From Alphaproteobacteria bacterium (GTDB taxonomy: Bacteria > Pseudomonadota > Alphaproteobacteria > SP197): a DNA stretch of 64,000 nt. A program made the position numbers and the translations under genes. The notes under the pieces are model-generated. The model was not told the origin of the DNA. It searched no databases and saw nothing but the letters and a program-made list of their open reading frames with translations. The stretch is from positions 1,312,001 to 1,376,000 of the forward strand of contig OZ219920.1 of NCBI GenBank assembly GCA_964291415.2, given 5' to 3'. This document shows, piece after piece, positions 835-29,825 of the stretch. The first letter of the stretch is position 1. Each line of letters begins with the position of its first letter.

Positions 835-1634
835 ACCTGGTGCGCTGGAGCAAGGCGGCCTTCATCACGGTCATGTTCGGCATGCTCGCCGCGCCGCTGC
901 TCATCGTTGCCGGGGTGTCGCTCAACTCCAAGAAGCTCATGTTCTTTCCGCCCAAGGGGCTCTCGTTGAAGTGGTACCCGGCGGTGTTCGAAACCAACCA
1001 GTGGCTGGAGGCCCTGACCACAAGCGTGATCATCGCCTTTAGCGCGGGCATCATCGCCATTTCGATTGCCTTGCCGACCGCCTACTTCCTGTGGCGCCAC
1101 AAGGTGCTCTACGCCAAGGCACTCTTTCTGGCCGGAGTCGTTCCCTTCGCCTTGCCGCCCGTGATCACGGCGCTTGGCATGCTGATCTTCTGGGTCGAGG
1201 TCGGACATGTCGGGCAGATCTGGAACATCATGATCGGACACGGTGTCTTTCTGGTGACCCTGCCGCTGGTGATGATTTCCCTGGGCCTGGAATCCATCGA
1301 TGACGAGATACTCGAGGCCGCGCGCACCATGGGAGCAGATTCGCGGCGCATCTTCACGACCATCATCTTTCCCATGGTGCTTCCCTACATGGTGGCCGGC
1401 TACGCCTTCGTCGTCGTGCTGTCGATGAACGAATACATCATCTCGTATTTCCTTGGGCAGCACGCCACCATCACCCTGCCGGTGCAGCTTCTTGCCAGCC
1501 TGAGATCCGGCTACTCGCCGATCATCGCTGCCGCTTCGGTGATGTTCATCCTGTTCGCCGTCGTGGTTTTCAGCCTCGTGGCCCGATTTGGTGATCTACC
1601 GAAACTGCTCGGCGCATGGACACCTAAGGAGTAG
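831..1634 (+). CDS. ABC transporter permease, PotC-like
   Basis: 'FPPKGLSLKWY' motif; EAA motif 'ILEAARTMGADSRRIF'. Confidence 0.88.
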   Translation: MNLVRWSKAAFITVMFGMLAAPLLIVAGVSLNSKKLMFFPPKGLSLKWYPAVFETNQWLEALTTSVIIAFSAGIIAISIALPTAYFLWRHKVLYAKALFLAGVVPFALPPVITALGMLIFWVEVGHVGQIWNIMIGHGVFLVTLPLVMISLGLESIDDEILEAARTMGADSRRIFTTIIFPMVLPYMVAGYAFVVVLSMNEYIISYFLGQHATITLPVQLLASLRSGYSPIIAAASVMFILFAVVVFSLVARFGDLPKLLGAWTPKE

Positions 1635-1640
1635 ACGCCC

Positions 1641-2297
1641 TTGTACATTCTCCATGGCGGCAACCTGACCCGGGCGCTGGCAGTCCAGATGGTGCTGGAA
1701 GAATCCTCGCTTGCCTATGAACTGCGCGATGTCGACATCGCGGCCCAGGAGCACCGCAGCGAAGCGTTCCGTGCCATCAATCCGGCCGGATACGTGCCCG
1801 CCCTGGTGACTCCCGAGGGCACGGTGCTGCACGAGGCCGCAGCCATCTGCCTGTGGCTGGCGGACAGACACGCAATCGAGGAGATGGCGCCCCTGCCGAC
1901 GGACCCGCTGCGCGGCATCTTTCTTTCCAAACTCTTCTACTTCACCAACGACATTCAGCCGGCACTCAAGCACTGCTACTATCCCCGGCGCTGGTCGCTG
2001 AGAGACAAAGACGCACAGGCTTTCCGAGAACTCTCACAGGCCATGGCGGCGGAACGCTGGCAGGTCCTCGAGGATTGGCTGGAAGCCAATGGGCCTTATC
2101 ATCTCGGCGATCGCCTCAGTCTGCTGGATCTCCATCTCAGCGTCTGGGTCTGCTATGGTTTCGACACGACCCTCGACATCCTCGTCACCATGCCGGCGAC
2201 ACGACGTCTCTTCGACCTGGTTCACGCCCGCCCGGTCAGCGGACCCTTGCTTGACAACCTGATTGCGACCCTGGAGAGCCACCGGGAGAATCCCTGA
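1641..2297 (+). CDS. Glutathione S-transferase family protein
   Basis: 'INPAGYVPAL...LHEAAAICLWLA' N-domain; 'GDRLSLLDL' C-domain; TTG start with AAGGAG RBS. Confidence 0.85.
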   Translation: MYILHGGNLTRALAVQMVLEESSLAYELRDVDIAAQEHRSEAFRAINPAGYVPALVTPEGTVLHEAAAICLWLADRHAIEEMAPLPTDPLRGIFLSKLFYFTNDIQPALKHCYYPRRWSLRDKDAQAFRELSQAMAAERWQVLEDWLEANGPYHLGDRLSLLDLHLSVWVCYGFDTTLDILVTMPATRRLFDLVHARPVSGPLLDNLIATLESHRENP

Positions 2298-2333
2298 CCC
2301 GCAGTACCCGTGCCAGGGCGAAGGATTACCGGT

Positions 2334-3338
2334 TCATCCCCAGTTGGCGCGAAAGGCCCGCAGGAAGTTGCCGCCGAGGAGCCGGGCAATGTCGGCCTCG
2401 TCCCAGCCGGACCCGAGAAGGCGGTCGGTGATGCGGTGCAGTTCACCATGGCTGCGGCAGTCGGCCAGATAGCGGTCCTCGATACGGTTGCTGAAGGCCT
2501 CGGCGTAAGCCCTGATGGCGGCCGGATAATTCTCCAGGGTGAAGGCGGTGATGTGGTTCACCGCCTTGCTGTCGGCCACCGCCGGCAGATCGGTGCCGAT
2601 GCCGACATGATCGATTCCGGCAAGGGCCACCACATGATCGAGATGACGCATGAAATCATCCAGCGACGGGGGCCGCCGGGTGTCGCCGTCCCAGCACATC
2701 GGTCCATAGATGCTGATGCCGATGACACCCCCCGAATCGGCTATGGCCCGAATGGCGTCGTCGGACTTGTTCCGCAGGGCCGACGTGATCGAGCGGGCGT
2801 TTGCATGGGTGGCGAAGACAGGCCTTGTCGACGCCGCGGCTGCCTCGACGGACGTCTTCTGGCCGACATGGGAAAGATCGATCGCCATGCCAAGGGAGTT
2901 CATCATGGCAACGACCTCGCGGCCGAGCGCCGTCAGACCCCGATCCTCCGGTTCGAGACATCCGTCGCCGAGGAGAGAGCGGCGATTGTAGGTGAGCTGG
3001 GCCACGCGCAGGCCAAGTTCGTGGAGCATCACCAGCCTCTCGAGCCTGTCGCCGATGGGGCGGAGATTCTGCCAACCCATGATGAGACCGGTGTCGCCGT
3101 CCGCGTGGCAGGCCTCGATGTCCGCGACCCGTCTCACCAGACGCCAGCCCGAATCGGGTTTCGCGAGGATGGCAAGCCAGCGCGCCAGACCATCCATGGC
3201 CTCCTCGAAATCGGCCTCGAAGTGGCTCACCGTCATGTTGACCGCCGTCACCCCGGCGCGACGCAGTACGCCCGGGTCACCGTCGCCGTGGAAGTTGAGA
3301 CCATCGATGACGAGAGAGCGCTCATGGAGAGTCGTCAT
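2334..3338 (-). CDS. Membrane dipeptidase (peptidase M19) family protein
   Basis: 'QLTYN', 'IDLSHVG', 'ATHAN...RNKSD', 'HVGIGTD', 'LGGNFLR'. Confidence 0.88.
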   Translation of the reverse strand: MTTLHERSLVIDGLNFHGDGDPGVLRRAGVTAVNMTVSHFEADFEEAMDGLARWLAILAKPDSGWRLVRRVADIEACHADGDTGLIMGWQNLRPIGDRLERLVMLHELGLRVAQLTYNRRSLLGDGCLEPEDRGLTALGREVVAMMNSLGMAIDLSHVGQKTSVEAAAASTRPVFATHANARSITSALRNKSDDAIRAIADSGGVIGISIYGPMCWDGDTRRPPSLDDFMRHLDHVVALAGIDHVGIGTDLPAVADSKAVNHITAFTLENYPAAIRAYAEAFSNRIEDRYLADCRSHGELHRITDRLLGSGWDEADIARLLGGNFLRAFRANWG

Positions 3339-4363
3339 GGCGTCCCCTCTTTCGCGAAGTGGGGCATGACGTCACGGGTGAATCTCTCCATGGAGGCCAT
3401 GACATCCCGGTGACTGGCGCCAAAGGACATGTTGCAGAGGAAATCCATGACGTCGAGGTCTCCATAGACGCCCAGCTTGTCAACGACCTCCCGGGCGGTT
3501 CCGATCGGCAGTGCATCGGCGATGTCATCCACCGTCTCGTCGACATCCAGGGGCACGATCTCCCCGTTCGACACCGTGCCGGACGTGAGGAAGACGTTGC
3601 AGAACCTGCGGTGGTTCTCGTGGGCCATGGCGATCTTCTCCCGCTTGTCGGCCTCGTCTGCCGCGACGTAGACCATGCGCAGCATGGAAAACCGTGCTCC
3701 TCTGCATGCCGCACCACCGTCGCGGCGGGCATCGTTGAAGGCGCCGGCCTGCATCCGGACCGTCTCCAGGCCCCCCCTCAACGGTGTCGTCTGCACGTGA
3801 TAGCCGCGGCGGACACAGTGGTAGATCGCCTCGTAGCCCAGGGCGGCAATCCACAGTGGAATGGATTTCTGTACCGGCCGGGGCGTGATGGTGATGGGCT
3901 CGAAGTCGTACCACCGGCTCTTCCAGCCGGTTTCCCGGCCCGACAGCAGCGCCTCGAGGAGGGCCAGGGCATCGTCGAAACGCTCCCGGCTCTCTTCGGG
4001 CGGCACGTTGAACCTGTCGAACTCGTAAGCGAAGGCGCCGCGACCGACACCAAGTTCCAGTCTGCCTTCCATCAGGCAGTCGGCCTGACAGATCTCACCG
4101 GCGAGTCGGCGCATGTCGTGGACGGGAAGAACGAGGACGGAGGTGATGATGCGGATCGCACGCGTCCGGCTGGCGACCTTGACGGCCGTCAGCAAGGGCT
4201 GGGGGTGCGTGAGATAGTTGATGAAATGATGTTCGGGGATGCACAGGGTGTCGAAACCGAGGGCTTCGGCATGGACGCTTTCCTCGACCGCGTCCTCATA
4301 GAGACGTTGCGCCGAGTAGGAGAGATCGGGCCAGTAGCACGGGAGATAGAAGCTGAATCGCAT
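3335..4363 (-). CDS. LLM-class (luciferase-like) flavin-dependent oxidoreductase
   Basis: 'IPEHHF', 'GRLELGVGRG', 'PRPVQ'; start placed at MRFSFY (4363). Confidence 0.88.
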   Translation of the reverse strand: MRFSFYLPCYWPDLSYSAQRLYEDAVEESVHAEALGFDTLCIPEHHFINYLTHPQPLLTAVKVASRTRAIRIITSVLVLPVHDMRRLAGEICQADCLMEGRLELGVGRGAFAYEFDRFNVPPEESRERFDDALALLEALLSGRETGWKSRWYDFEPITITPRPVQKSIPLWIAALGYEAIYHCVRRGYHVQTTPLRGGLETVRMQAGAFNDARRDGGAACRGARFSMLRMVYVAADEADKREKIAMAHENHRRFCNVFLTSGTVSNGEIVPLDVDETVDDIADALPIGTAREVVDKLGVYGDLDVMDFLCNMSFGASHRDVMASMERFTRDVMPHFAKEGTP

Positions 4364-4522
4364 GACGCGACAAAGGTGACGAATGATCATCCCACGTCAA
4401 CCCGGGATGATGGTTCTTTCGCCATTGGGCCGGATCGCATAAGGTTCCGGCACAGATGGTCCCGTCTCGCAGGCGAGGCCTGCCGCACATGTGGACCAAC
4501 CGCAGCTCACGGGAGGAGCACA

Positions 4523-5686
4523 ATGACCCCGATCATGGATCTTGAAGAATTCCGTTCACGCCTGGCGAACCACGACATTTCGCGCCGCGACATCAACAGG
4601 GTTCTCGCGTCGGCTGGTGTCGCCACCGTTGCCGTGCCGCTCGTCGCGAGCCACGCTCAAGATGAAGAGGACGAGGCAGACTACGAGATCGACAGCGACC
4701 TGACGGTCTTCACCTGGTCCGGTTACGACATTCCGGAGCTTCACACGAGCTACATCGACAAGAACGGCACGACTCCGGCCTTCACGCTGTGGGGTGAGGA
4801 AGAGGAAGGATTCCAGAAGATGCGCGCGGGGTTCAAGCCCGACATTGCAGCGCCTTGCACCTACAGCCTGCAGCGATGGTGGGATGCCGGACTGCTTGCG
4901 CCTCTGGACACCTCCCGTCTCGAGTACTGGGACAACGTGTTTCCCGCCCTGCAGACCGTGACCGGTGCGGTCATCGAGGGGAACCAGGTGTTTCTTCCCG
5001 TCGACTGGGGCAACAGTTCGGTCCTGTTCCGTCCGGACCTGGCGCCGGAGTACGCCGGACCCGAGAACCATTCATGGAAGATCCTGTTCGACGAGAAGTA
5101 TGCCGGACGCCTCGGAATCTATGATTCGGTAGACGGTGTCTTCGGTGTGGTTGGCGCCGTCATCGGCGCGGAGAATCCCTTCGACATGACCGACGAGGAA
5201 CTCGAGGAAGCGGCCAAGTGGATGCGCAAGCAGCGTGAAGTTCTGCGCTGGTACTGGACCGACATCACAGCTGTCGAACAGGGCCTCGCAACGGGCGAAC
5301 TCGTCGCCTCCTATGCATGGAACAGTTCTGTCGTCGAACTCAAGAAGCAGGGTGTTGAAATCGAGTACATGAACCCGAAAGAAGGCATCTACACCTGGGT
5401 GTGTGGAAACGTGCACATCGCCACGGGCGAAGGGTCTGACGACAAGACCTACGATTTCCTCAATGCCATGTCGTCACCCGAAACCGGTGAATACATCATC
5501 ACCAATTACGGGTACGGCCACTGCAACCAGCAGTCCTTCGACCTGGTGGATCAGAGCACGCTCGACGATCTCGGCCTCTCCGATCCGGTCGCTTTCATGA
5601 AGGACAGCCGCTTCTTCGATGAGATCCGGCCCGAAGTCCGCGAGAAGTACATCGCGCTGTTCGACGAGATCAAGGCCGGTTTCTGA
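4523..5686 (+). CDS. Extracellular solute-binding protein, PotD/PotF-like, with Tat-like signal
   Basis: GGAGGAG RBS before ATG 4523; 'ISRRDIN' twin-Arg leader; 'FTWSGY', 'PVDWG', 'PKEG' motifs. Confidence 0.87.
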   Translation: MTPIMDLEEFRSRLANHDISRRDINRVLASAGVATVAVPLVASHAQDEEDEADYEIDSDLTVFTWSGYDIPELHTSYIDKNGTTPAFTLWGEEEEGFQKMRAGFKPDIAAPCTYSLQRWWDAGLLAPLDTSRLEYWDNVFPALQTVTGAVIEGNQVFLPVDWGNSSVLFRPDLAPEYAGPENHSWKILFDEKYAGRLGIYDSVDGVFGVVGAVIGAENPFDMTDEELEEAAKWMRKQREVLRWYWTDITAVEQGLATGELVASYAWNSSVVELKKQGVEIEYMNPKEGIYTWVCGNVHIATGEGSDDKTYDFLNAMSSPETGEYIITNYGYGHCNQQSFDLVDQSTLDDLGLSDPVAFMKDSRFFDEIRPEVREKYIALFDEIKAGF

Positions 5687-5744
5687 TTCTGATCATGATG
5701 CGTCAGCGGGCTTCCAGGGCACGCTGACGCATCAGTTGTGAACG

Positions 5745-7355
5745 ATGCCGCAAAGGGATCCTCCTGACCGGCAGAGTGTGGGACACGTTCTTCGCTGCCG
5801 GGCAGACGCGACGCCGGATGCGCCCTTCATTCTGTCCGACCAGCGCACCCTCACCTATCGTGAGGCACATCGTGACTCCAACAGGCTCGCCAACGGTACG
5901 ACGGCACTTGGGATCAAGTCCGGAGAAGCCGTCCTGGTGGTGATGCCGAATGTCGTCGAGTTCATCCTCGTGTGGCTTGGCCTGGGCAAGACCGGAGCCA
6001 TCCAGGTCCCTGTCAACACCGCACTGCGCGGCACTCTTCTCACCCACATCATCAATGATTCCGCTGCCCGCACGATGATCGTCGCGGCGGGTTTCCTTGA
6101 CCGCATCGGCGAGGTCGCCGGTGATCTCGAGTATCTCGAGCGCCTCATCATCTTCGATCCCACAGGCGTACAAGCCACGCTGCCACGCGCGCTTTCTCAC
6201 CTCGAAAGGATCGATTTCCCTCAGCTGCTCGACGCGGAGGACACACCGCCTGACGACCTCCCTCGCCACCATGATCTCAAGGCGGTTATGTACACTTCGG
6301 GCACCACGGGACCTTCCAAGGGGGTCATGATTTCCCAGCGCCAGGCCTATGGCTACGCCCATGGCAACTTCGAACTCATGGACCTCAAGCCGGGCGATGT
6401 CTACTACGCACCGCTGCCGCTCTTCCACATCGCCGGACAGTGGGCCATGTGCTACTCGTCGATGATCGCCGGCTCGGCGGCTGTGGTGACGGAACGGTTC
6501 AGCGTCGAACGCTTCTGGAGCGATGCCAGACGGTTCGGAGCCACCGTCACGTTCTTTCTCGGGGCCATGGCAAACTTTCTGGCGCGCCAGCCCCGGGAAC
6601 CGGACGACAGCAGCGTCCCCATCGAACGCGCACTCGTCGTCCCGATGTTTCCGGACGCCGGCAGCTTCGCGAAGCGATTCGGCATGAAGATCAAGACCAC
6701 CTACGGATCGACCGAGGTGTCCGCGCCACATCGCATGGACTGGAACGACCCCGACTGGAAGACCTGCGGCAGACTGGCGGACGAGCTCTACGAGGCGCGG
6801 ATCGTCGATGCCGACGACGAGGAGGTGCCGGACGGCACTGTCGGCGAGTTCGTCATTCGAGGCAAGGAACCCTGGCTCCTCATGTCGGGCTACTGGCGGC
6901 ACCCGGAGTGGACGGAGAAGGCCTGGTCCAACCTGTGGCTGCACTCGGGCGATGCCATGATGAAGACCTCGGACGGCCGCTACTACTTCGTCGACCGGAT
7001 GAGTGATTCCATCCGCAGGCGCGGCGAGAACATTTCCTCCCTTGAGGTGGAGAACGAAATCAACCTCCACGCGGATGTCCTTGAATGTGCGGTCTATCCC
7101 GTGCCGAGCGAGCATACCGAGGACGAGGTGATGGCAACGGTGATCCCGCAACCCGGATGCACGCTCGACCCGGAGAGCCTCATCCGTTTCCTGGAACCGA
7201 GGATGGCCCGATTCATGGTGCCGCGTTACATCGATGTTGCAGAGAGCCTTCCCAAGACCCCCACCGGCAAGATCAGGAAGGTGGCCCTGCGCAATGCGGG
7301 TGTCACGTCCTCTACCTTCGACCGCGAGAAGGCAGGTATCATCCTCAAGCGATGA
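5745..7355 (+). CDS. ATP-dependent acyl-CoA ligase (CaiC-like AMP-binding enzyme)
   Basis: 'YTSGTTGPSKG', 'YGSTE', 'WLHSGD', 'RRGENISS', 'PKTPTGKI'. Confidence 0.9.
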   Translation: MPQRDPPDRQSVGHVLRCRADATPDAPFILSDQRTLTYREAHRDSNRLANGTTALGIKSGEAVLVVMPNVVEFILVWLGLGKTGAIQVPVNTALRGTLLTHIINDSAARTMIVAAGFLDRIGEVAGDLEYLERLIIFDPTGVQATLPRALSHLERIDFPQLLDAEDTPPDDLPRHHDLKAVMYTSGTTGPSKGVMISQRQAYGYAHGNFELMDLKPGDVYYAPLPLFHIAGQWAMCYSSMIAGSAAVVTERFSVERFWSDARRFGATVTFFLGAMANFLARQPREPDDSSVPIERALVVPMFPDAGSFAKRFGMKIKTTYGSTEVSAPHRMDWNDPDWKTCGRLADELYEARIVDADDEEVPDGTVGEFVIRGKEPWLLMSGYWRHPEWTEKAWSNLWLHSGDAMMKTSDGRYYFVDRMSDSIRRRGENISSLEVENEINLHADVLECAVYPVPSEHTEDEVMATVIPQPGCTLDPESLIRFLEPRMARFMVPRYIDVAESLPKTPTGKIRKVALRNAGVTSSTFDREKAGIILKR

Positions 7356-26415: not shown

Positions 26416-27288
26416 TCACCCCGTCATCGGGCCACGACGGATGGTTCGATAGATGGCGGAGATGTCGAGGTCACCATGCCCGGAGGCGTCGAAGCGTGCG
26501 AAACGCCGTGCGGCCTCGGCTCCGAAGGGGGTTGTCTGACCACAGATCGTGGCCGCCTGCTGGGCAAGGGAAAGATCCTTGGCCATCAGCCGTGCGGCAA
26601 ACCCCGGGGCGTAGCCATGGGTTGCCGGCGCATCGGGCATCAGACCGGGTACCGGACAGCGGTTGTCCAGAATCCAGCTCTGCGCCGCGGCTCCGCGGCA
26701 CAGCTCGTGGAACTTCCCGGCATCGAGATCGAGGGACTCCGCCAGCGCGAAGGCCTCGCACACACCAAGCATGGTGATGCCGCAGATCATGTTGTGGCAG
26801 GCCTTGGCGGCCTGGCCCGACCCGGTCTCACCGAAATGAATGACCCGCTTTCCCATGATGTCGAGCAGGGGCCGGACTCGGGCGACATGGTCCGGCGCTC
26901 CGCCAACCATGAAACTCAGGGTTCCGTTCGCGGCGCCTTCGGGGCCACCCGACATTGGCGCGTCGACAAAGCCGCAATCCGCCCCATCGGCCATGATGGC
27001 AAGGCGGCGCGTGGCAGCAACGTCGATGGAAGAACAGTCGAGGAAGATTCGTCCCTCTCTCTGCCCGTGAAGAGCTTCGACAACGCTCGTGACACTCTCG
27101 CCGTCCGGCAGCACGGTGATCACGGTGTCCGCTTCAAGCGCTGTCTCCTCGAGGGATGCTGTGTCCAGTGCCCTTCTCACGTCGGCATCGGTGTCCCAGC
27201 CAGCGACGCTGCATCCCGCTGCAGCCAGGCGCCGGATCATCGGCCGACCCATGGTGCCCAGCCCGACCAAACAGATCTGTCCCGACAT
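26416..27288 (-). CDS. mmsB: 3-hydroxyisobutyrate dehydrogenase
   Basis: 'GLGTMG', 'DAPMSGG', 'AAKACHNMI', 'CPVPGL...GFAARLMAKDL'; AGGAGG RBS. Confidence 0.82.
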   Translation of the reverse strand: MSGQICLVGLGTMGRPMIRRLAAAGCSVAGWDTDADVRRALDTASLEETALEADTVITVLPDGESVTSVVEALHGQREGRIFLDCSSIDVAATRRLAIMADGADCGFVDAPMSGGPEGAANGTLSFMVGGAPDHVARVRPLLDIMGKRVIHFGETGSGQAAKACHNMICGITMLGVCEAFALAESLDLDAGKFHELCRGAAAQSWILDNRCPVPGLMPDAPATHGYAPGFAARLMAKDLSLAQQAATICGQTTPFGAEAARRFARFDASGHGDLDISAIYRTIRRGPMTG

Positions 27289-27489
27289 GACACTCCTCCT
27301 TCGTTCATGCAACCACGCTCATCCGGCCGGCATGCGCGGCGAGCTGACACGCATTATCCTCATTCTCACACGGGCAGCATTCCGTAGCCGAGACCATGCT
27401 GGTGGAGGTAAAGAAGCGCGTTGCGCTGACGTTCCGGATCCCTTTCTTCCCCATTGTGGTCATCCTGTCGGGCCGGTGTGTCGGCGGCT

Positions 27490-27549
27490 CGCAGCTGGCG
27501 GGTTGAAGAACAGCTCTTGTCGACCTGTCCTGGATTCTCCAAATGAATG
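27490..27549 (+). pseudogene. Left fragment of a type I R-M methyltransferase (HsdM) C-terminus
   Basis: Reads RSWRVEEQLLSTCPGFSK*, resembling HsdM 'HAWRGE...DVPGFCKS', which normally precedes the segment at 28884. Confidence 0.5.
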
Positions 27550-27553
27550 CATG

Positions 27554-27578
27554 GGGAATTGTATACGAAACTTGACAG
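27554..27578 (+). repeat. Left terminal inverted repeat
   Basis: GGGAATTGTATACGAAACTTGACAG. Confidence 0.72.
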
Positions 27579-27585
27579 AATAGAC

Positions 27586-27614
27586 TTGACATCCAATGGT
27601 GTTATCGATATGAA
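27586..27614 (+). promoter_or_regulatory. Candidate sigma70 promoter for tnpB
   Basis: TTGACA (27586-91), 17 nt, TATGAA (27609-14); GGAG RBS at 27645-48. Confidence 0.55.
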
Positions 27615-27655
27615 TTCGTGTCGTAAATCAGTGTTCGCAACACCGGAGTCCCCGC

Positions 27656-28855
27656 ATGTCGTCCTCTGTCGCCTATCGACAGATCACCTTTCGCCTGCTG
27701 CCCGAGAAACGCAGCACCTGGCGGCGGCTGGAGGCCATGCTCGACACGCAGCGCTGTCTCTACAACGCGGCGCTGGAAGAACGGATCGACTGCTACCGGA
27801 AGACCGGCAAGTCACTCACCTACTTCGATCAGGCGAAGTCCCTGACCGTGTGCCGCGAGGCGCTGCCGGACATGGCGGCGGTGCCGGTGGCCATTCAGCG
27901 CGGGACGCTCAAGCGCCTCGATCATGCCTTCAAGGGCTTCTTCCGGCGGGTGAAGCAGGGTGGGGCCGGGTTCCCCCGGTTCCAGGGACGCCGGCACTTC
28001 AACAGCCTTTCCGTGGTCTCCGGCGTCAGGGTCGAGGGCAGTCGCCTGCGCATCCCCGGCCTGGGCTGGCTGACCATCCGCCGCCGGGGCGGCAATCCCT
28101 GGCCGCAGGGCACGCCGGTGAGTGCGGTCCTCAAGCGCGAGGAGGGACGCTGGAAGGCTGTGGTATGCCATGCGGTGTCGCTGCCGGAATCCGACGACAA
28201 CGGCCATGCCGTCGGCGTGGACGTGAATGCGGGCCAGGTGGCGACCTCGGACGGGGAGATCCTGCGCCTGGAGAGGAGCCGGCGTCTCGAGGCCCGTGCC
28301 CGGCGCTGCGCCAAGCAACTGGCGCGGCAGCGCCGTGGCAGCAGGCGGCGGGAGAAGACGCGGCGGCGTCTGGCGAAGACCACCCGGCACATGGCCATGA
28401 AGCGCCATGACTGGCAGCACCACGTCAGTCGCCGGCTCAGTGAGACGGCCGGGACGGTGGTGGTCGAGGATCTGAAGGTCCGCACCATGACCCGCAGCGC
28501 CAGGGGCACGAAGGAGGAGCCGGGACGTCACGTGCGCTCCAAGGCGGGTCTCAACCGCGTCATCCTGGAGACGGGCTGGTCGTCGTTCCGGAGAATGCTG
28601 GACTACAAGGTTCACCGCGTCATCGCGGTGAACCCGGCCTACAGCAGCCAGACCTGTGCAGCGTGCGGCGTCACGAGCGCCCAATCACGCAGGACGCGGG
28701 ACCTGTTTCAATGCGTGGCGTGCGGCCATGCGGATCACGCCGACCTCAATGCAGCGGCGAACATCCTGGCCTCGGGGACTGAGGCATCTGCGCGGGGAGG
28801 TTGCCGGGTTGCCGGGCCTGTGAACCGCGAAATCGATCGGAGGATGGCAGCATGA
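27656..28855 (+). CDS. tnpB: RNA-guided endonuclease TnpB
   Basis: 'LYNAALEER', 'GFPRF', RuvC-I 'VGVDVN', RuvC-II 'VVVEDL', Zn ribbon CAAC/CVAC, RuvC-III 'HADLNAAANIL'. Confidence 0.95.
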   Translation: MSSSVAYRQITFRLLPEKRSTWRRLEAMLDTQRCLYNAALEERIDCYRKTGKSLTYFDQAKSLTVCREALPDMAAVPVAIQRGTLKRLDHAFKGFFRRVKQGGAGFPRFQGRRHFNSLSVVSGVRVEGSRLRIPGLGWLTIRRRGGNPWPQGTPVSAVLKREEGRWKAVVCHAVSLPESDDNGHAVGVDVNAGQVATSDGEILRLERSRRLEARARRCAKQLARQRRGSRRREKTRRRLAKTTRHMAMKRHDWQHHVSRRLSETAGTVVVEDLKVRTMTRSARGTKEEPGRHVRSKAGLNRVILETGWSSFRRMLDYKVHRVIAVNPAYSSQTCAACGVTSAQSRRTRDLFQCVACGHADHADLNAAANILASGTEASARGGCRVAGPVNREIDRRMAA

Positions 28856-28882
28856 CGCTGTCAACTTCTCGATATAAGTCCC
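28769..28882 (+). ncRNA. Putative omega-RNA scaffold core overlapping the tnpB 3' end and right TIR
   Basis: Hairpin GCCTCG-GGGAC-TGAGGC whose loop is complementary to terminal GTCCC (28878-82); true 5' boundary unknown. Confidence 0.55.
28858..28882 (-). repeat. Right terminal inverted repeat
   Basis: Reverse complement GGGACTTATATCGAGAAGTTGACAG; starts 2 nt after the tnpB stop. Confidence 0.72.
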
Positions 28883-28883
28883 C

Positions 28884-29081
28884 ATGAATAATCAGGGCTG
28901 CGTGCTAACGTTGGGCTGCCATGCTGGCGCGGCTCCTGTGGAGGACGACGACGAGCCGTTCGAGGACAAGACGCTATGCCTCGTCAAGCAATTGCGTGAA
29001 CAGCAGGCCGAAGGCTCGCGGCTGTACCGGACTATCGAAGCGAGTCTCGAGGTGCTGGGGTTCGGGAGTGGCGGATCGTGA
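28884..29081 (+). pseudogene. hsdM: C-terminal relic of type I R-M methyltransferase HsdM
   Basis: 'VLTLGCHAGAAPVEDDDEPFEDK...QLREQQAEG..L...IEASLEVLGFG' resembles HsdM 'VLTPGRYVG...EDDGEPFEEKM...LGF'. Confidence 0.75.
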
Positions 29082-29503
29082 CTATCGACACAACATTCCT
29101 GCGACGCTGCATCGGCGTGCTGGAGTGTGCCTCGGAGGAAATCTGTGCACACGACGAGTCGGACGACTTCGTCTACGACATCTATCGCGCGGCCTGCGTC
29201 AAGGAGTTCGAGCTGGTTCTGGAGCAGAGTGGCAAGCTGCTGCGCAAACGACTCGCGGCTTACTTCGCCAGCAATCGGCGGGCGGACCGTCTGACATTCA
29301 GGGATCTCTTCCGTCATGCCGGGAAACACGGCTTGATGGAACCGGAAGCGGTCGAACGCTGGTTCCACTACCGCGACAACCGAAACGATACCGCGCATGA
29401 CTACGGCAAGGACTTCGCCGAAGCGACGCTCAAGCTGTTGCCTGCGTTCATCGCCGACGCGAAGGCGCTGGCCGACGCGATCGAGGCGGGAAACGATGGC
29501 TGA
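29078..29503 (+). CDS. HEPN protein (HI0074-like nucleotidyltransferase substrate-binding family), putative RNase toxin
   Basis: 'KEFELVLE', Rx4H motif 'RNDTAH'; overlaps the hsdM relic stop and the MNT start. Confidence 0.87.
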   Translation: MTIDTTFLRRCIGVLECASEEICAHDESDDFVYDIYRAACVKEFELVLEQSGKLLRKRLAAYFASNRRADRLTFRDLFRHAGKHGLMEPEAVERWFHYRDNRNDTAHDYGKDFAEATLKLLPAFIADAKALADAIEAGNDG

Positions 29504-29825
29504 TCGGCTGCATCTGAAACCGGAGCATCGCCGTACCCTTGAGGCGCTGTTGCAGAAGCACCTGCCCAAGACCGAAGTCTGGGCCTACGGCAGTCGCGTG
29601 GACGGTCGGAGCCACGATGGCAGCGATCTCGATCTCGTTCTGCGCGGCCCGGGCCTGAAGGAGATTCCGATCCTTCAGCTCGGAGACTTCGAGGATGCTG
29701 TGCGGGAATCGAGCATCCCCTTCCTGGTCGAGGCCCGCGACTGGGCCCGTCTGCCAGAGCGGTTTCATCGGGAGATCGAGCGCAATCATGAGGTGTTCTA
29801 TCAACACAATGAACAAGGCAAATAG
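29496..29825 (+). CDS. Minimal nucleotidyltransferase (MNT, HI0073-like), putative antitoxin
   Basis: GSx10DxD 'YGSRVDGRSHDGSDLDL'. Confidence 0.87.
   Translation: MADRLHLKPEHRRTLEALLQKHLPKTEVWAYGSRVDGRSHDGSDLDLVLRGPGLKEIPILQLGDFEDAVRESSIPFLVEARDWARLPERFHREIERNHEVFYQHNEQGK

Follow-up and report, generated by a model that had tools for sequence, protein, structure and literature searches.

A TnpB nuclease gene between IS1595-type ends: a probable trans-mobilised, transposase-less element in an alphaproteobacterial genome

We analysed a 64,000 bp window of DNA from an alphaproteobacterium (Alphaproteobacteria bacterium, GTDB lineage SP197; assembly GCA_964291415.2, contig OZ219920.1, forward-strand positions 1,312,001 to 1,376,000), in which a 1329 bp element at window positions 27554–28882 has a tnpB gene as its sole long gene. 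The element has ends of the IS1595 type, is present in several copies with flanking 8 bp duplications, has no transposase gene of its own, and contains a covarying RNA structure that runs to its last bases. We consider it probable that it belongs to a non-autonomous IS1595-type lineage whose entire cargo is a TnpB nuclease gene and the scaffold of the nuclease's guide RNA (omegaRNA), and which is moved in trans; a G beside the insertion site is a candidate for the nuclease's target-adjacent motif, a more tentative reading. Feature coordinates are collected in Table 1.

Ends, duplications and distribution of the element

An earlier note on this DNA (the original prediction) had described inverted ends of 25 bp around a lone tnpB, and re-reading of the letters agrees with it: the left end (27554–27578) is GGGAATTGTATACGAAACTTGACAG, the reverse complement of 28858–28882 is GGGACTTATATCGAGAAGTTGACAG, and the two are identical at 18 of 25 positions when aligned without gaps. 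CATG lies directly outside both ends (27550–27553 and 28883–28886), and had been offered as the target-site duplication or, alternatively, as a 2 bp AT duplication or part of a longer inverted repeat. The source genome (G000; 4.44 Mb in five contigs, rated 100% complete) was searched at the DNA level for further copies, and holds five full-length ones including that of the window, the other four being 92–97% identical to it, as well as one 5′ fragment and several small pieces. All copies start with GGG(G)A and stop with ..GTCCC, at the positions originally proposed. Perfect 8 bp direct repeats flank four of the five copies (c2a, AAAAAATG; c1, CTTCCTTT; c2b, AATCGGAG; c2c, ATCGACAA), so the target-site duplication is 8 bp long and the three readings of CATG are set aside. 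This length is typical of the IS1595 family, and it removes the original prediction's own caveat that IS1595 elements usually make duplications of 8 bp.

The 8-mers outside the window copy are AATGCATG on the left and CATGAATA on the right, which have only CATG in common; a loss of 4 bp beside the right end would explain this remnant. An empty site for this copy was not found in same-genus genomes, where the gene in its left flank has orthologues and its right flank is located elsewhere. The site of copy c1 is uninterrupted in same-genus genomes, which gives partial support only, since the right-flank homology begins at the duplication and the left side has diverged. Contigs from other public sequencing runs stop matching the window precisely at positions 27554 and 28882, and the boundaries of the element are thus confirmed at other sites. 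One further copy in the source genome, called the fifth (G000 C2:85682-87486; L005 2681-4180 and L007 1-1500), is interrupted within tnpB by a ~1.8 kb IS110-family element that has a 374 amino acid open reading frame matching PF01548 and PF02371 and the dinucleotide CT on either side.

One genome per species was scanned for relatives of the window's TnpB, which gave 68 loci encoding such proteins; 41 near-full-length loci were examined, and 39 full-length proteins, including that of the window, were placed in a tree. Inverted ends of the GGGnnTTATAT type are present on both sides in 29 of these 39 tree members, on one side in two and on neither in eight, and they are kept around TnpB relatives down to about 30% identity with the window protein. 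Among these relatives 14 have perfect 8 bp duplications and six have duplications that match at 7 of 8 positions. The bearers belong to the Alphaproteobacteria (several of them Paracoccaceae), Gammaproteobacteria, Chloroflexota (Dehalococcoidia), Thermodesulfobacteriota and Spirochaetota (Spirochaetia); Nonomuraea, Kribbella, Ferrovum, Tundrisphaera, one Paracoccaceae locus and a long-branch Marinobacter locus are among the eight without ends. Close homologues do not pair with Y1 or serine transposase genes: among the relatives checked, a Y1 gene adjoins only the Marinobacter locus (L047). Further regions from the same genus have ends and a duplication of 7/8 or better in 11 of 20 cases. As a negative control, and not as additional members, 76 distant metagenome TnpB loci (26–40% identity in all but one locus) were put through the same scan of ends and duplications; none gave a good inverted repeat together with a duplication of 7/8 or better, and IS1595-like ends were seen in only two of them (L170 and L206).

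The source genome also has two IS1595-family transposase genes, found by a Pfam search (PF12762) and both matching NF033547, which lie side by side on contig C2. The elements that hold them, Element A (3161 bp, 28 nt inverted repeats) and Element B (2468 bp, perfect 24 nt inverted repeats), are both in an A-tract and carry unrelated passenger open reading frames. They occupy positions 1359–4519 and 4529–6996 of locus L020 (G000 C2:45000-53500), 9 bp apart, with the transposase gene of Element A at 3462–4445 of the locus on the minus strand; the first has a 464 amino acid frame with an HExxH motif, a lipoprotein-like start and no Pfam family above cut-off, and the second a 130 amino acid frame of no known family. 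The transposase-proximal end of Element A matches the left end of copy c2b at 23 of 25 positions and that of the window copy at 20 of 25, so that the original prediction's guess at IS1595, made from the tips of the ends, has found its elements in the same genome; its narrower likening of the ends to the ISNwi type stays tentative. A likeness of the 5′ leader and ribosome site to Elements A and B was also considered and dropped, since alignment gave no homology past the ~26 nt inverted repeat.

Four of five other genomes that contain TnpB elements have IS1595 transposases. The ends of these IS1595 elements match those of the co-resident TnpB elements at 20/25 in two genomes and at 17/25 in a third, whereas the fourth shows no good match. 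Finding the full ends of autonomous elements needed regions larger than the first ±1.5 kb loci. Thirteen of 14 transposase-bearing elements with GGG-type ends have a duplication of 7/8 or 8/8, and the repeat of the fourteenth (L236) was read by hand. Co-resident IS1595 elements of 2.4–3.8 kb carry unrelated passenger open reading frames. One genome contains two copies of a 3.2 kb IS1595-type element (L233 4233–7439 and L234 3102–6308) with the same flanks in inverted order, as if they lay inside a larger inverted duplication or a nested element.

No IS1595-type DDE transposase gene is present inside 27554–28882, where IS1595-like ends and an 8 bp duplication length are found, so we call the element an IS1595 derivative and not a full member of the family. 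The hallmarks of the IS200/IS605 family (IS1341 group) are lacking, as inverted ends and 8 bp duplications are present and the genome, complete by its rating, has no Y1 transposase (Y1_Tnp). Those of IS607 are lacking in the same way, inverted ends and duplications being present (no search for a serine recombinase was made). The proposal of the original prediction that this is a non-autonomous DDE-type derivative mobilised in trans is thereby supported at the level of sequence by the ends, the 8 bp duplications and the co-resident IS1595 elements. Its further suggestion of a capture is not supported in the sense of a visible parent, since tnpB and a transposase gene occur within one pair of ends in none of the 68 loci. 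An IS1595 transposase gene neighbouring tnpB at L040 was examined as a possible composite with it and rejected, because it belongs to a separate ~1.06 kb insertion sequence with different ends.

The nuclease gene and the candidate RNA scaffold

The protein matches PF07282 at 67.5 bits (cut-off 26.3) and PF01385 at 48.6 bits (cut-off 30.5), the OrfB_IS605 and Cas12f1-like_TNB models being those matched, and NCBIfam guided_TnpB (NF040570) at 205.4 bits (cut-off 100). It scores below cut-off with the models for particular transposon groups: 161 bits with IS200_TnpB (NCBIfam; cut-off 425) and 96.6 bits with IS607_TnpB (NF038280; cut-off 350). The alignment with ISDra2 TnpB chains 8h1j and 8exa (E ~2e-33) runs over the full length and keeps all three RuvC motifs and both CxxC pairs; the motifs were placed by the residue numbers of ISDra2 TnpB. 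When 10 diverse relatives are aligned, the residues D189, E271 and D363 and the cysteines C334, C337, C353 and C356 do not vary, which, with the family models and the ISDra2 alignment, upholds the original description of the only gene as a TnpB with an intact RuvC triad. The ratio of nonsynonymous to synonymous substitution rates (dN/dS) is 0.16–0.43 in all 36 pairs drawn from nine closely related intact copies; the gene is intact and under purifying selection. Model scores, the D-E-D triad with the zinc finger and a candidate structured omegaRNA all place it in the TnpB family; on the guide- and motif-dependent DNA cleavage that would go with this, only the counts of G at the insertion sites (34 of 35, below) bear. 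The source genome has a distant second TnpB gene (G000 C1:387871-389019, minus strand) that is 37% identical over 388 amino acids.

The distance from the tnpB stop codon to the element end is 5–56 nt for 21 of 22 listed relatives; L038, whose reading frame is broken, is the exception, and in five listed relatives the stop codon is the TAA of the inverted repeat itself. The final 112–119 nt are conserved as nucleotides although the proteins are just 45–60% identical. RNAalifold, applied to 15 sequences, gave five helices with 26 pairs in which 94.9% of the cells are paired, with compensatory changes in 12 of the 26 pairs; the covariation score was matched by none of 500 shuffles, and sliding the partners by 1–3 columns reduced pairing to 28–41%. 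One strand of the last helix is coding sequence and the other is the inner right inverted repeat, and four of the seven pairs of this helix show compensatory changes. Folding the window sequence by itself recovers all these helices (−50.5 kcal/mol, z −2.4). Variability at third codon positions among the nine close intact copies is 0.13 in codons 361–390 vs. 0.27–0.50 elsewhere. The last 115 nt are thus arranged like an omegaRNA scaffold whose end coincides with that of the transposon, and we regard them as a candidate omegaRNA.

No terminator-like site was found between tnpB and the flank, and consensus scans of 27450–29000 for sigma-70 promoters and terminators were empty, as was an Rfam scan of 27000–29500 at E ≤ 1. 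Contigs of three metatranscriptome runs map on the element, contigs of a kind that show neither strand nor ends and come from libraries that may contain DNA; one such RNA-library contig, from a related copy, crosses the element end into the flank, which is no proof of transcription. A 69 nt piece of the scaffold (window 28768–28835, 91–94% identical) is present inside two copies of a repeat that resembles a miniature inverted-repeat transposable element (G000 C2:344456-344804 and C4:1169271-1169582), and the same repeat occurs without this insert at C4:883416-883589 and C4:560972-561137. A contig of metatranscriptome run X5 joins the upstream sequence of that repeat to position 28768.

The G beside the left duplication and the mode of movement

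The duplications vary in sequence, but what of the base next to them? In a first set of 20 TnpB-element sites with a duplication of at least 7/8, the base preceding the left duplication is G in 19; at the mirror position, just beyond the right duplication, C occurs in only 10. Independent sites (11 same-genus elements of other subfamilies and four loci) gave G in 15 of 15 and a mirror C in 5 of 15, so that the pooled values for 35 sites are G 34, C 0 and T 1, with a mirror C in 15. The bias spans TnpB subfamilies whose inner end sequences differ greatly. The 14 transposase-bearing elements with GGG-type ends, oriented by their transposase gene, have G in six, C in six and T in two, and two more transposase-bearing elements with other end types have A at that position. 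The transposases thus seem to favour AT-rich 8-mers with a G or C at either side, while the TnpB elements are found almost only where this base is G on the tnpB strand. Such a pattern is expected if TnpB reads the strand-specific G of an empty site as its target-adjacent motif. To this suggestion we give something near, though not above, an even chance, because few autonomous elements were compared and a single base falls far short of the length of known TnpB motifs.

The reading that we prefer for the element as a whole would work as follows. The mover, an IS1595-family DDE transposase supplied from outside the element (in this genome probably by Element A on contig C2), would bind the ends and carry out cut-and-paste transposition. 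Transcription of tnpB would pass through the right end, so the guide would consist of the right copy of the duplication and the flank beyond it. TnpB with its omegaRNA would then cut the empty form of its own site (G followed by a single copy of the duplication and by the right flank), and a copy in which the element is still present would serve as the template for repair of the break. Cutting of the empty site and repair from an element-bearing copy have been shown for IS605-type TnpB. The near-invariant G 5′ of the left duplication would be the target-adjacent motif or part of it, and, as an occupied site has a C (of the ...CCC end) at the motif position, the element would not cut itself. 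On this basis a TnpB clade may have shifted from Y1 and serine transposons into IS1595-type elements, with the inverted repeat as the last helix of its RNA, the duplication as the first 8 nt of its guide and the G as its motif; taken together, these steps are a tentative proposal that we think somewhat less likely to be right than wrong.

The TnpB might instead be passive cargo of an IS1595-type mover, TnpB and its RNA being idle and the G a target preference of the mover. This is in keeping with the routine presence of unrelated passenger genes in the IS1595-type elements of these genomes, with the absence of any direct sight of the RNA or of cleavage, and with the G or C found at 12 of the 14 transposase-bearing sites, by which the transposase has some preference of its own. 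We nevertheless judge it unlikely, since the bias of the TnpB elements is specific to one strand relative to tnpB (G 34, C 0 and T 1 vs. G 6 and C 6 in the autonomous elements) and holds across subfamilies with very different inner ends, and since the gene is intact with a low dN/dS and the RNA structure covaries.

Several observations weigh against the preferred reading. Neither transposition nor the RNA nor cleavage was observed, and the contigs from RNA libraries may stem from carried-over DNA. With tnpB and a transposase gene together at none of the 68 loci, the link to IS1595 is drawn from the ends and the duplication length only, and the similarity between the TnpB element and Element A ends after ~26 nt. 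The copy in the window has no clean duplication itself, and the genomic copies are 3–8% apart, so there was no very recent burst. Genome G005, which has TnpB elements, has no IS1595 transposase at E ≤ 0.001, and the complete same-genus genome G034, with at least three TnpB elements (L228–L230), has none at E ≤ 1e-25; no transposase may be left there to move its copies. As regards the G, the autonomous comparison sample is small (14) and mixed, known TnpB motifs are 4–5 nt long, much longer than a single base, and survivorship alone poorly explains a G at 97% of sites, as transposase-bearing elements persist without it.

Some of the same facts would fit a mover other than an IS1595-type one, or copies that are immobile relics: the copies are not near-identical, one is split by the IS110-family insertion and others are fragments, and some genomes with TnpB elements have no detectable IS1595 transposase. 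Against this, the ends match those of co-resident IS1595 elements at 20–23 of 25 positions in three genomes, the duplications have the same 8 bp length as theirs, and there are many independent insertion sites inside one genus, which makes this explanation very improbable. It is hardly credible that this is an ordinary solo tnpB of the IS200/IS605 (IS1341-type) or IS607 kind with incidental ends and flanking repeats, in spite of the IS200_TnpB score (below its cut-off), the hairpin into which the right end folds and the Y1 transposase gene beside the distant relative L047, since perfect 8 bp duplications flank four of the five own copies and 14 relatives and inverted ends occur throughout, the 76 distant TnpB loci gave no comparable pairs, the source genome lacks a Y1 transposase, and IS200/IS605 and IS607 elements are described, in the parts consulted of PMC13565253 and PMC6188088, as making neither inverted ends nor duplications.

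If the proposed shift of the clade into IS1595-type elements, with its rebuilt guide system, is true, RNA-guided retention or homing operates with DDE transposons in bacteria, and the near-absence of copies without the G would mean that the persistence of an insertion depends on TnpB activity and not on the transposase. TnpB is a compact genome editor from which Cas12 arose, and its known biology, in which the empty donor site is cut and the transposon copied back, was worked out for the scarless Y1 and serine transposons. Here a widespread clade has TnpB living only in IS1595-type elements without a transposase of their own, and the strand-specific G, which has no counterpart in transposase-bearing relatives, is a testable handle on the role of TnpB in a cut-and-paste element. 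The G also hints at nucleases whose target-adjacent motif is very short, a property that editing could put to use.

Table 1. Features of the TnpB element and its flanks (window coordinates).
Feature	Position	Strand	Basis or remark
Whole non-autonomous element, 1329 bp	27554..28882	+	First and last bases identical in five genomic copies; public contigs diverge there
Left terminal inverted repeat	27554..27578	+	18/25 to right end; 20/25 to transposase-proximal end of Element A
Right terminal inverted repeat	28858..28882	-	tnpB stop codon 3 nt upstream
tnpB, 399 amino acids, intact RuvC D189/E271/D363 and zinc finger	27656..28855	+	Family matches, alignments, dN/dS
Candidate omegaRNA scaffold, five helices	28768..28882	+	Last helix pairs 28840–28848 with inner right inverted repeat
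Left flanking 8 bp (AATGCATG), expected place of duplication	27546..27553	.	Only last 4 bp (CATG) recur on right
Right flank: degenerate duplication (CATGAATA) and stretch giving putative guide	28883..28902	+	Position from canonical TnpB layout
G just 5′ of left 8 bp duplication position, candidate target-adjacent motif	27545..27545	+	Site counts

Directly to the right of the element, at 29078–29825, are overlapping small open reading frames (141 and 142 amino acids) that recur as a unit elsewhere in same-genus genomes. Parts of 27400–29000 are found in many public runs labelled sponge metagenome, from several studies, with sampled-word shares of 0.15–0.38; when four runs were compared along this stretch, the sponge metatranscriptome run X5 covered 28 of its 30 bins. 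A tblastn search of plasmid records with the TnpB protein gave no match at E ≤ 1e-30.

Comparison with known systems

The presence of TnpB in DDE transposons, solo copies moved in trans included, was already published in 2023. The main text of Altae-Tran et al. 2023 (PMC10691335) describes six DDE-associated TnpB branches (DDE-1 to DDE-6), all with inverted terminal repeats, and solo TnpBs that share those ends and were inferred to be mobile in trans; IS630 is the sole family named there. The present element is like these branches in having a prokaryotic TnpB between inverted repeats, the 3′ end of tnpB near the transposon end and solo copies that would be mobile in trans, and it is unlike them in that a transposase gene is inside the same ends at none of the 68 loci. 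The 8 bp duplication, the inverted repeat in the last RNA helix and the adjacent G do not appear in that main text, and its supplementary lists may include the clade. A 2026 review (PMC13565253) gives ISL2, IS630 and IS1031 as DDE partners of TnpB, leaves IS1595 unnamed in the part consulted, and asks why TnpB rarely accompanies DDE transposases, whose excision already leaves a break. Literature searches found no paper, among the partial texts covered, that links TnpB to IS1595, nor was a strand-specific G next to the duplication met there. Set against the main text of Altae-Tran et al., what this element adds, and what deserves testing, is its IS1595 form, the double role of its inverted repeat and the G next to its duplication.

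Fanzor elements are known from eukaryotic cut-and-paste transposons (Bao and Jurka 2013, PMC3627910, consulted in part), and for Fanzor1 Yoon et al. 2023 (PMC10711439, likewise) predicted that the RNA scaffold takes in the inverted repeat and the duplication. Like the Fanzor1 and Fanzor2* elements, the present ones are non-autonomous, have inverted ends and duplications and hold a TnpB-family nuclease by itself, and their inverted repeat is in the predicted scaffold. The Fanzor duplication, according to the parts of these sources consulted, is short, sequence-specific and described as either taken up by the scaffold or recognised as the motif, whereas here it is 8 bp long and variable, in bacterial hosts. 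As it varies it is not scaffold; it would be guide, with the motif lying upstream of it.

Solo tnpB genes of the IS1341 type resemble the element in having a lone tnpB, a 3′ omegaRNA and a transposase encoded elsewhere, but they have hairpin ends, a fixed target motif of 4–5 nt, no duplication and a Y1 mover, in contrast to the inverted ends, 8 bp duplications and lack of a Y1 gene found here. The IS1595 passenger elements and the transposase-less cassettes derived from insertion sequences have the same type of ends and 8 bp duplications. From the passenger elements the present one differs in its cargo, an RNA-guided nuclease with a putative RNA that overlaps the transposon end, in having no transposase gene, and in the extra strand-specific G.

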